Positions 41,025 to 61,097 of a DNA stretch of 64,000 nucleotides are shown here, in pieces; positions within the stretch are counted from its first letter, which is position 1; each line of letters begins with the position of its first letter. The DNA comes from Okamejei kenojei. Taxonomy: Eukaryota. The notes under the pieces are model-generated. The model saw only the letters and a program-made list of their open reading frames with translations. It had not been told where the DNA came from and did not search any database. A program made the translations under genes and the position numbers. The DNA lies in contig CM069151.1 in NCBI GenBank assembly GCA_035221665.1, positions 33,976,001 to 34,040,000 of the forward strand, in the 5' to 3' direction.

Positions 41025-41163
41025 TCAAAACAACGGGTTGAGGGAATCTGTTGCATGGATTCCTGGCTGTTGGACCTCCTTTGAATGTTCACTTCGATTC
41101 TTCCCATCAGTAAAATCCTTAGTTTCCACAGGATTGAACAGTTCATTAAAACTGGCTGTGTTC
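41025..41163 (-). CDS. Unnamed gene last coding exon J
   Basis: cctcttcatag|(R)[16 protein letters not shown]...SLNPLF-TGA; minus-strand AATAAA at 40604-40599. Confidence 0.82.
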
Positions 41164-59100: not shown

Positions 59101-61097
59101 GATCATGGATTGAGAGGGAAATGAAGGTAAAAAGAGTTAGAAGAAGAAAGAGATGAAAATAAAAAATTTAGGGGAGACGTACATGAAGAGAGTGTGTGGG
59201 TGTGGAGGTGGGAGGGTGGGAGAGAGAGAGAGAGAGAGAAATGTGATTAACGACATCTTGCCATGTTTCGAGAGCTAATAAAAAAAAACAAAGAGTGCGA
59301 GGGTCAGGGTGAGGCAAGGTATGTCTGATCTGTGATACACAGGTATATTGTTCGGGTGCGGCTAACAAAACATAACCCAGACCTCTTGGAACTACTCAGC
59401 CCTCACATCTCTGCTCTCAACCATCATGCACAACTCCGTCTCCATCTCCCAAATTTGTTTCATTCCAATTCTAATTCCCAGCTCATCCCAATCTTCAAAT
59501 CTTTTGGCATTTCTACCACATCCTCAACATTCTCAGTTCCATCCCTATCCTCATATCCAGCTCAATATTCAACTTAATCTTCACCTCTATCCGACTTCGA
59601 CGTCTATCCACTCTATTCCCATCTCCTTTACTATTCTTATCTTTACTCCCTATTCCAACTTCCCATAATAGTGAACTCCACAATGATCTAAATCTCCTTC
59701 CTCATCTCTAATCTCTACTTCATGTTCATCCCCATATTCATTTTTAGCTTTATACCCAGGACCCTTACCACTCTGATCAACGTCCATCTCTGGTGTAACT
59801 AGCTCCAGGAACATGACTGTCAGGTTGTTATAGTGCTGGTTGTTCTGCCAGTCATCGTGTAGTGAGCAGTAAGTGCTAACCAGGTCATTCGTAAACTGAA
59901 ACAAAATATATAATGGGGTTGAGAGCATAAGCAGTTGTAGAGTATAAGTTAACCAATATAGTGAATCCAGAGCAGTGAATCACAATTTAGAGTTGCTGAT
60001 AGTGAACCCACTGTACAACTAATCACAGTTCAGCCCCCAATAATGAACCCCAAGACCCATTATAGTAAAACACAGTTCAGAGACCACAATGATAAATTTC
60101 AATATATGGATCTTGATATAACGTCCCCAACATGGTGAATCACAATTGAGAGACAATAGTTATGAAACTCAAAAAGAGATCTCAATGTAGTGAATCGCAA
60201 TTGAGGGACCCAACAATGAACCCCAGCACTGAGACCCTTACAGAGAACCCAACACAGTAACCAATTCAGTGACTCAATTCTGAATCCCAAAACAAAGAAT
60301 CCAAATAAATGAACCTCGATACAGTGAACCGCAAAAGAGGGAACTCAAAGTAAATCCATTTTGGTGAATTCCCATAGAGGGCAGGGAAGTGATTTGACAA
60401 GTATCCAGATGTCCAAAAATGTACGTTTGAATCCTACCACGATAATCGGGGAATTTAAATTGAGTTAATTCAATACATCTGGAATTAAAAGGCAATACTA
60501 GTTATCAGTAAGGGTGACCATGAATCTAGTAGATACTTACAATGTCATGCAGGGAAGAAATCTACTGTCCTTACTTGGTCTGACCTACATGTAAGTCAAG
60601 ATCCATCAATGTGGTTGACTTTTAAATGGTAGTTTGAAATGGACCAGCAAGCACTCGGTCCAAGGGGCACATAGCAATGGACAGAAAATGCCAGCCTTAA
60701 CGCCAAAGCTCATCATCTATGAATTAACAAAATTCTTAACACATTAAAACCTAATACAGGTAACCCTGTACAGAGCCTCCAATTTACACTCCATGCATGG
60801 AACCCAATACAAGACAGAGAGCCCAGTATGCACCACAATAAATAAATCTTATTGCAGAGAATCTAATGCAAAGAACCACAACACAAATGCGTCAGTCCAG
60901 AGGCAGCACACATTTCTCACCTGTCCCTCCATCTGTTGGGTCAGTTCCTGGACATTGGCCAGTTGCATGAGCTGCAGCTCCATGAGCCCCACGATGGCTG
61001 GGCTTTGCCTCCTTGGCTGCACTGTGGTCTCCTTCCTTTCCCAGTACAGGACAAAGGCTTTCTCCAAGAGACTGAGCTGAAGATCACTTTTCTCACT
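41025..61097 (-). CDS. Uncharacterised multi-exon gene, 3' ten exons (about 504 aa visible; 5' end beyond window)
   Basis: Ten GT-AG exons with pyrimidine tracts chain in matching phases without a stop (1515 nt including TGA); charged helical C-terminus. Confidence 0.85.
41870..41958 (-). CDS. Unnamed gene exon I (0-2)
   Basis: gtcccgcattag|[29 protein letters not shown](R)|gtagga. Confidence 0.85.
45040..45141 (-). CDS. Unnamed gene exon H (0-0)
   Basis: tcttctcctctcatccag|[34 protein letters not shown]|gtgaga. Confidence 0.85.
45998..46141 (-). CDS. Unnamed gene exon G (0-0)
   Basis: ttttggtgtgtag|[48 protein letters not shown]|gtgagt; alternative acceptor at 46131. Confidence 0.8.
48024..49852 (-). 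mobile_element. 5'-truncated CR1 LINE (ORF2 reverse transcriptase, frameshifted)
   Basis: ORF 49045-49761 KSPGPD..HPRVLKE...[13 protein letters not shown]...[13 protein letters not shown]...[11 protein letters not shown]-terminal ORF 48115-48486; CR1 ATTCTATG-type tail. Confidence 0.95.
49994..50173 (-). CDS. Unnamed gene exon F (0-0)
   Basis: tttctgtggctcag|[13 protein letters not shown]...PELKSRDS|gtgaga. Confidence 0.72.
50612..51152 (+). mobile_element. CR1 LINE 3' fragment, inverted relative to 48024-48570
   Basis: [34 protein letters not shown]; ends cctgcacctattttctatg. Confidence 0.92.
51880..51946. mobile_element. 67-bp MITE with CAAAGATCC termini and 8-bp TSD (P-element-like)
   Basis: CAAAGATCC...GGATCTTTG flanked by gttgagag / gttgagtg. 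Confidence 0.7.
51955..52765 (+). mobile_element. CR1 LINE 5' UTR/ORF1 remnant
   Basis: Degenerate Cys-rich ORF1 start (tcctcctgcaggatg...tgtggggagtgtg) and esterase-like segment (GD..., ggtgtg..ctcccgggtgtcagggtccaggatgtc). Confidence 0.65.
54693..54902 (-). CDS. Unnamed gene exon E (0-0)
   Basis: tttcttttcttaaag|[14 protein letters not shown]...[13 protein letters not shown]...DSKSGEL|gtgaga. Confidence 0.75.
55248..56294. mobile_element. Non-autonomous DNA transposon (about 1.05 kb), hAT-like termini
   Basis: Imperfect TIRs TAGGTATGTTACAAAACTT vs TAGCAATGTTACAAAATTT; flanks caataga / caatagg. Confidence 0.8.
56901..57089 (-). CDS. Unnamed gene exon D (0-0)
   Basis: ccttctcactaag|[19 protein letters not shown]...NEACFLDP|gtgagt; acceptor less certain. 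Confidence 0.65.
57228..57385 (-). CDS. Unnamed gene exon C (1-0)
   Basis: tatctgacag|(G)[15 protein letters not shown]...TLDNFPLPQ|gtgagt; only this frame is open. Confidence 0.75.
57492..57625 (-). mobile_element. Short retroposon with (GAA)n tail and 11-bp TSD
   Basis: (TTC)n at left end; CTCCTGCATTC duplicated at 57481-57491 and 57626-57636. Confidence 0.75.
59769..59895 (-). CDS. Unnamed gene exon B (0-1)
   Basis: ttttgtttcag|[42 protein letters not shown]|gtaagg. Confidence 0.8.
59955..60360. repeat. Degenerate minisatellite-like tract
   Basis: Recurrent (a/g)tgaa(c/t)c..ca..gag(a/g)cc motifs with irregular period. Confidence 0.5.
60921..61097 (-). CDS. Unnamed gene exon A (phase 0-0)
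   Basis: cttaccttcag|[23 protein letters not shown]...[21 protein letters not shown]|gtgaga. Confidence 0.8.

Follow-up and report, generated by a model that had tools for sequence, protein, structure and literature searches.

Exon chain of the skate gene

The minus strand of a 64,000-nucleotide window from the skate Okamejei kenojei (contig CM069151.1, positions 33,976,001 to 34,040,000) carries an unnamed gene whose exons lie between positions 41025 and 61097 of the window. From these letters alone, the original prediction described an uncharacterized ten-exon vertebrate gene in the place that KCP holds in humans. Its account of the splice sites and reading frame was reproduced in full. On direct inspection, all ten exons are preceded by AG acceptors, all nine internal donors are GT, the exon phases (0, 0, 1, 0, 0, 0, 0, 0, 0, 2) are compatible through the whole chain, and the joined exons form 1,515 nucleotides that encode 504 amino acids and a stop codon. 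The alternative frames of the joined exons contain 14 and 36 stops.

Each exon was then compared with 12 named RefSeq proteins of skates, rays, sharks, teleosts, and a turtle (Table 1). A predicted protein of the thorny skate Amblyraja radiata (LOC116985269, hereafter P0001) matches nine of the ten exons, with identities between 32/46 and 47/48 residues, a level well above chance. Most of these nine exons also match proteins of stingray, electric ray, and sharks. Frame-preserving conservation in other chondrichthyans, on which the original prediction had staked the existence of the gene, is thus found for all exons except exon 4, and the sequence comparisons indicate that the skate gene is almost certainly real.

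The proposed exon boundaries hold for the nine exons supported by orthologs, with one adjustment. An AG acceptor at position 50194, which is 21 nucleotides upstream of the predicted start of exon 6, adds seven amino acids and is used both by P0001 and by a protein of the stingray Hemitrygon (P0002). This acceptor is probably the true start of the exon. Exon 4 matches none of the 12 named proteins and is skipped cleanly in P0001. Shuffle tests against three unnamed relatives gave p values of 0.018, 0.25, and 0.27, so that one of the three hints at a match. In a scan for splice signals, 18.5 kb of intron contained a single false exon of similar quality, and the opposite strand contained none. 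Because this cassette is cleanly skipped, carries strong splice signals, and has few false counterparts, exon 4 is probably an alternative exon.

The ten exons do not make up the entire gene as had been proposed. No start codon was found in the chain. By tblastn, the window exons cover only residues 331 to 762 of the 764-residue P0001 and approximately residues 422 to 893 of the 895-residue P0002, and a profile of seven chondrichthyan proteins yielded no additional exons at positions 61098 to 64000. Judging from this coverage, the 5′ part of the gene lies outside the window: 330 to 430 N-terminal residues are encoded beyond it, and the window holds the 3′ part.

Table 1. Coding exons of the skate gene and associated features, in window positions. 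Fractions are identical residues over compared residues; the repeat, the giants, and the C-terminal module are described in the text.
Feature	Position	Strand	Description
SPMIP1, two coding exons (35442-35883 and 38523-38635)	35442..38635	+	Neighboring gene; Pfam SPMIP1, E 5e-30
Candidate poly(A) signal	40599..40604	-	Nearest AATAAA, ~420 nucleotides past the stop; motif only
Exon 10 (last coding)	41025..41163	-	Conserved terminal part of helix 2, then a short tail and the stop; 31-32/46 in four batoids
Exon 9	41870..41958	-	Second long helix of C-terminal module; 28/29 P0001, 13/29 teleosts
Exon 8	45040..45141	-	Final part of helix 1, and the module's hinge; 33/34 P0001
Exon 7	45998..46141	-	First long helix of C-terminal module; 47/48 P0001, 14-16/48 teleosts and turtle
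Exon 6	49994..50194	-	Linker; acceptor probably at 50194 (moved from 50173)
Exon 5	54693..54902	-	Linker; 58/70 P0001
Exon 4	56901..57089	-	Phase 0-0 cassette, probably alternative; no named-ortholog support
Exon 3	57228..57385	-	Start of disordered linker; 49/53 P0001; low confidence (<50) in P0002 model
Exon 2	59769..59895	-	Last helices of repeat; 37/42 P0001, 18/42 in three sharks
Exon 1 (first in window; internal, phase 0)	60921..61097	-	Helical end of the single retained ~420-residue repeat; 57/59 P0001, 28-29/59 sharks; aligned to repeat 1 of the giants

Several further features of the gene were recorded. Exon 5 contains an in-frame tandem duplication of 21 nucleotides (54797-54841) that is present as a single copy in P0001, and the duplication is therefore recent or polymorphic. 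The gene model from Rhinoraja (P0005) continues past the donor of exon 5 into intronic sequence and has no C-terminal module; it is probably a truncated prediction. The intron after exon 6 holds a fragment of a reverse-transcriptase open reading frame on the minus strand (49045-49794; Pfam RVT_1, E 2.7e-14), which is a remnant of the LINE (long interspersed nuclear element) type. Finally, positions 62000 to 64000, in the intron upstream of exon 1, form a block of 60% GC with long plus-strand open reading frames and no Pfam match. The block looks like the gag region of a DIRS-type retrotransposon.

Orthologs and their distribution

A search with exon 7 returned three proteins among 79 candidates: LOC116985269 (98% identical), the stingray protein P0002, and a Mobula fragment. 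With P0002 as the query, 16 of 8,000 scored candidates were identified (seven chondrichthyan and nine teleost), all of which are annotated as uncharacterized or hypothetical. A profile built from vertebrate orthologs matched 282 representatives at E ≤ 0.001, and our statements on this set rest on the best 150 of the 282. For tetrapods, the C-terminal module of an alligator protein retrieved three of 687 candidates, namely two alligator proteins and one turtle protein. No mammalian or bird match to this module emerged among word-sharing proteins of 654 to 2,083 amino acids, which is an insensitive search. Likewise, word-based and similarly insensitive searches gave no named mammalian or bird protein. 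A few unnamed profile matches are possibly mammalian, and possibly human, and these were not used. Loss in mammals, which the original prediction raised, may or may not have occurred.

We also built a tree from the C-terminal module with 47 rows (15 named proteins or the window, 29 unnamed vertebrate-like proteins, and the three giants introduced below), leaving out fragments, near-duplicates, and possibly mammalian rows. In this midpoint-rooted tree, which has long branches, one supported branch holds the chondrichthyans, another the teleosts, and a third the two named reptiles, and the window is sister to Amblyraja (support 100/99). The tree follows the species groups, as expected for single-copy orthologs, and the gene is apparently a conserved, single-copy gene of jawed vertebrates.

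Searches against known families and folds provided no characterized counterpart. At curated cut-offs, Pfam matches none of the 10 exons, 17 named orthologs, and 23 further relatives, save for the KCP domains of a fused alligator model discussed below. Searches of PDB sequences, with queries that included one of the giants (P0122), returned only calsensin. The predicted structure of the stingray protein P0002, searched as a whole-protein model only, had no meaningful match to known folds (Foldseek E 0.6 and VIA Z 6.7 at best), and the ESM Atlas held no cluster at or above 0.9. Furthermore, we found no publication on 12 of the LOC identifiers and no description of the locus or its giant relatives in the literature covered, from which most subscription journals are absent. 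The gene is indeed uncharacterized, as originally proposed, in that it has no name, domain, or paper, but it is not newly found, as it is already predicted in the RefSeq annotations of many fishes. The exons and orthologs also lack any Pfam match to SPMIP1, SPMIP11, or FAM183, whereas the neighboring SPMIP1 has one, and we rejected the idea that the gene encodes a microtubule inner protein with the SNYG module.

Relationship to giant EF-hand proteins

The vertebrate-only profile retrieved three unnamed giant proteins (P0122, P0125, and P0135) with E values from 1.5e-19 to 5.9e-16. These proteins are 2,503 to 2,728 amino acids long and 40 to 46% identical to one another, and phmmer detects five copies of a helical repeat of about 420 amino acids in each of the three. 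A profile made only from the giants matches shark proteins colinearly, with 92 bits over positions 198 to 625 and 30 bits over positions 2510 to 2670, and also matches the N-termini of stingray and teleost proteins at positions 6 to 100. Alignment of the vertebrate and giant profiles by hhalign (99.0%, E 7e-18, 367 columns) ends in the region that window exons 1 and 2 encode. At the other end of the protein, the product of window exons 7 to 10 scores 109 to 119 against the last 200 residues of each of the three giants, compared to a shuffle mean of 51 and shuffle maxima of 72 to 77. We consider it very probable from these alignments that the skate protein is homologous to the giants at both of its ends.

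One of the giants was modeled with AlphaFold2 over its first 650 residues. The model, with a mean predicted local distance difference test score (pLDDT) of 77.6 and a predicted template modeling score (pTM) of 0.60, contains four helix-loop-helix units and, after them, helical bundles. Foldseek gave no hit to this N-terminal part at E 0.001, and the 44 rows shown are calmodulin-family proteins by title or size, with a best E value of 5e-3. The second EF lobe was aligned by VIA over 70 residues with a best Z score of 9.3 and a root-mean-square deviation of 2.0. Among PDB sequences, a sequence profile matches calsensin at E 8e-4, and generic EF-hand clusters in the ESM Atlas reach 0.85 for the same region. 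As modeled, the first ~150 residues of the giants adopt a calmodulin-like paired EF-hand fold.

The giants probably belong to non-vertebrate animals, given their position outside the vertebrate rows of the tree. The description of the locus as a vertebrate gene is accordingly only partly accurate: its orthologs do occur in sharks, rays, teleosts, and reptiles, but its giant relatives lie outside the vertebrate clade.

Protein architecture across lineages

The predicted structure of the stingray protein P0002 agrees with the proposed arrangement of helical ends and a disordered middle. Its N-terminal part is helical, pLDDT is below 50 over residues 494 to 750 (the linker), and two long helices follow at residues 755 to 801 and 811 to 859 with pLDDT values of 82 to 97 (86 to 97 for the first helix). 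These two helices form what we call the C-terminal module. The skate linker, encoded by exons 3 to 6, measures 253 amino acids rather than the ~300 that had been estimated, and 26% of its residues are serine, proline, or glutamate. None of the 13 proteins examined for transmembrane segments has one (19-residue hydropathy window above 1.6), although some of these models may begin downstream of the true N-terminus.

The other parts of the protein vary among lineages. In shark and teleost proteins, the EF region is eroded, and a single repeat is followed by a linker of approximately 200 to 350 amino acids and the C-terminal module. In an unnamed squamate-like protein, the repeat is retained and the linker is ~2,000 amino acids long. 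The turtle and alligator proteins have little beyond an EF pair, a long low-complexity stretch (a linker of ~1,000 amino acids in the turtle), and the module. The loop of the third EF-hand is of the canonical DxDxDG type in alligators, the turtle, and one unnamed squamate-like protein. In Hemitrygon, Scyliorhinus, and every teleost row, this loop is disrupted; loops 1, 2, and 4 were judged by eye only. The linkers of the teleost proteins (P0009-P0017) carry two conserved motifs, CxxCG...PYLE and QGSLI..AW, that are absent from shark and ray proteins.

Four batoid proteins (P0001, P0002, P0004, and P0005) are missing about 75 profile positions of the repeat compared to sharks, teleosts, and giants, which likely reflects the loss of an exon outside the window. 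This gap, the missing calcium loop, and the fast divergence of the linker are what might be expected if the gene were a decaying, nearly neutral remnant in skates. We find this scarcely credible and rejected a pseudogene, because the frame is open over at least nine exons and the module is retained in fishes and reptiles. Moreover, the module exons are far better conserved from skate to shark (23/29 residues for exon 9 and 29-31/48 for exon 7) than the linker exons, with no match for exon 5.

Genomic neighborhood and KCP

The plus-strand neighbors identified by Pfam are filamin repeats, ATP-synt_F (ATP6V1F), and SPMIP1, in agreement with the predicted gene order. The filamin gene is presumably FLNC, given its position and muscle-type insert. 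SPMIP1 and the skate gene are arranged tail to tail, and their stop codons are 2.4 kb apart. An assembly gap of 167 N lies at about 22540-22710, between the filamin gene and ATP6V1F, and GC-rich tandem repeats with units of 33 and 59 nucleotides are present near the 5′ end of ATP6V1F (27360-27504 and 28623-28775). In the available portions of published sheep and cattle gene lists, the order is FLNC, ATP6V1F, SPMIP1/ATP6V1FNB, KCP, IRF5, and TNPO3, and the interval between SPMIP1 and KCP is empty (PMC12924876, PMC13244917, PMC12188200). A further list, in the portion available, is alphabetical (PMC11161479). In the cattle chromosome 4 lists, as far as they are available, SMO, of interest for the EVC-like candidate discussed below, appears in the same block a few genes past KCP, which is probably due to chance (PMC13244917, PMC12188200).

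Two alligator models named “kielin/chordin-like” (P0110 and P0161) carry the VWC and VWD domains of KCP fused in front of the EF region and C-terminal module of the gene described here, and the turtle ortholog is a stand-alone protein. The fusions imply that the gene sits between SPMIP1 and KCP, on the strand of KCP, and the same placement probably applies to the skate, where KCP falls outside the window. We therefore rejected the original view that the gene occupies the place of KCP, since the alligator models join the two directly. The accompanying claim that the gene is not KCP was upheld. By Pfam, VWC or VWD domains and cysteine-rich repeats are present in none of the 10 exons and none of 17 named orthologs, and the only VWC and VWD domains lie in the KCP-derived part of the fused alligator model.

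These fusions also raise the prospect that KCP itself uses the exons as an alternative 3′ end or includes them by read-through, as two of the three proteins matched by the alligator module place it behind VWC and VWD domains. However, the models from turtle, rays, sharks, and teleosts are separate proteins, each with an N-terminus of its own, and the family has its own EF-hand start that it shares with the giants. In addition, the two alligator fusions leave KCP at different points, as prediction errors would. For these reasons we rejected a KCP isoform as very improbable, and both alligator models are probably annotation errors that join KCP to this gene.

Proposed role and alternatives

We lean toward the view that the skate protein is a soluble intracellular tether or scaffold, based on its predicted architecture. 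The two-helix module at the C-terminus, which is the only part kept in every lineage, would bind an essential partner, and the N-terminal helical bundle would contact either this same structure or another partner. The linker might serve only to set the reach of the protein, in which case it could change freely, from ~200-350 amino acids in fishes to ~1,000 in turtle and ~2,000 in unnamed tetrapod-like proteins. Calcium control through the third EF-hand may be ancestral, with its retention in reptiles and its loss in rays, sharks, and teleosts.

Many proteins of cilia and sperm combine EF-hands with long charged helices and rapidly changing linkers. The protein could thus reside in a cilium, at a basal body, or in a sperm flagellum, away from the periodic lattice of the doublets. 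This is the likeliest single guess from the type of protein and, weakly, from adjacency to SPMIP1, which is a microtubule inner protein according to the portion of PMC10973386 available. We assign a probability of roughly 0.45 to a tether or scaffold that acts in such a ciliary or sperm setting.

Several observations weigh against this interpretation. The P0002 model has an overall pLDDT of 56 and a pTM of 0.35, and its look-alikes in the ESM Atlas, the centrosomal proteins CEP295NL and CEP126, score 0.76 to 0.77, which shuffled proteins also reach. Exons 1 and 2 alone score 46 to 53 against the giants, below the shuffle maxima of 60 to 66, and the link at this end rests on profiles. Because of midpoint rooting, long branches, and the tentative taxonomic placement of the giants, a direction from giant to short protein, as opposed to growth from a one-repeat ancestor, is a supposition. 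There is no PDB sequence match despite several maps of axonemes, and hence the protein is not a resolved doublet protein. To our knowledge, the neighbors FLNC, ATP6V1F, and KCP are not ciliary genes, so the neighborhood argument is weak.

The same architecture could instead belong to a non-ciliary cytoskeletal or cornification scaffold akin to the S100 fused-type proteins. Trichohyalin, for example, has an EF-hand head, a long charged repetitive body, and a conserved tail. The reptile and unnamed tetrapod-like versions are similar in that they have an EF pair, 1,000 to 2,000 residues rich in glutamine, glutamate, and proline, and a conserved tail, and FLNC adjoins the gene. However, the head is a four-EF, calmodulin-like lobe, the long repetitive body is absent from the fish versions, and no S100 Pfam match is listed for 20 + 8 proteins, where weak matches would be filtered. 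The locus is also, we assume, not the epidermal differentiation cluster in which the S100 fused-type genes reside. On balance, we regard this alternative as unlikely.

A further candidate is the EVC-like pair EVC3.1/EVC3.2, to which the family might belong or be related, with a function at the ciliary base. The EVC3 proteins were reportedly defined by Pusapati et al. in 2014. Among the matches listed, only Sigg et al. (10.1101/153437) uses the name EVC3 in the relevant sense, and the part available describes EVC3.1 and EVC3.2 as ancient ciliary EVC paralogs that are missing in some mammals, including humans. This age, location, and absence favor a relationship, as does the description of EVC and EVC2 as coiled-coil proteins in the accessible portion of PMC3052239. 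The same source gives EVC and EVC2 signal-anchor or transmembrane segments, which none of the 13 family proteins has. Furthermore, the Pfam family EVC2_like is not listed for the giants (E up to 2) or the vertebrate proteins, although HMMER filters drop weak matches. This explanation appears quite unlikely.

If the tether or scaffold does act in cilia or flagella, a broader history can be sketched. An ancient family of giant repeat proteins that sense calcium, so far undescribed and with a novel ~420-residue helical repeat and a novel binding module at the C-terminus, would have collapsed in jawed vertebrates to one repeat and a linker, calcium sensing would have been kept or lost by lineage, and the linker would have re-expanded to 2,000 residues in tetrapods; the family might even be a soluble EVC-like branch. 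We offer this scenario tentatively, as it is less probable than the ciliary tether itself. If correct, it would reveal an overlooked ciliary or sperm component that is hidden in annotation behind KCP.

Apart from function, which we can only infer, the family appears to have a history deeper than the vertebrates. The gene was already predicted in several genomes. Absent from the libraries and papers covered is the family view, in which sequence comparison ties a single locus, present in groups ranging from skates to reptiles, to giant proteins with EF-hands and repeats. The ~420-residue repeat and the C-terminal helix pair appear to be two unclassified modules. Repeat number, calcium loop, and linker length vary while the C-terminal module stays, which points to this module as the functional core. 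Our results also flag a misannotation, in that some “KCP” models contain this gene. If it is true that mammals keep an eroded copy beside KCP, a much-studied region includes an unlisted gene.

Comparison with known systems

The closest counterparts are the RefSeq predictions LOC116985269 (Amblyraja radiata), LOC134359215 (Mobula), LOC119973466 (Scyliorhinus canicula), LOC125463400 (Stegostoma), LOC103466681 (Poecilia reticulata), and others, which are orthologs with the same exons and module. They differ in that they are computer predictions with no name, domain, or function, and none has exon 4. KCP is adjacent, on the same strand, and fused to the gene in two alligator models, but the skate gene and its stand-alone orthologs have neither its VWC and VWD domains nor its cysteine-rich repeats.

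The likeness to EVC, EVC2, and EVC3 lies in long charged helices. The family described here differs from EVC and EVC2 in having no membrane anchor and no listed EVC2_like match; the comparison with EVC3 is with its published description. The calmodulin, centrin, and troponin C superfamily resembles the first ~150 residues of the giants, and the third loop is canonical in reptiles. Here, however, the EF lobe is a small part of a large protein, its Pfam EF scores are below curated cut-offs, and the region is degenerate in rays and not encoded in the window. The giants themselves share with the vertebrate protein an EF-hand N-terminal lobe, the first helical repeat, and the C-terminal module, all in colinear order. 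They have five repeats and an intact four-EF lobe, whereas in the vertebrate protein a single repeat is followed by a disordered linker.

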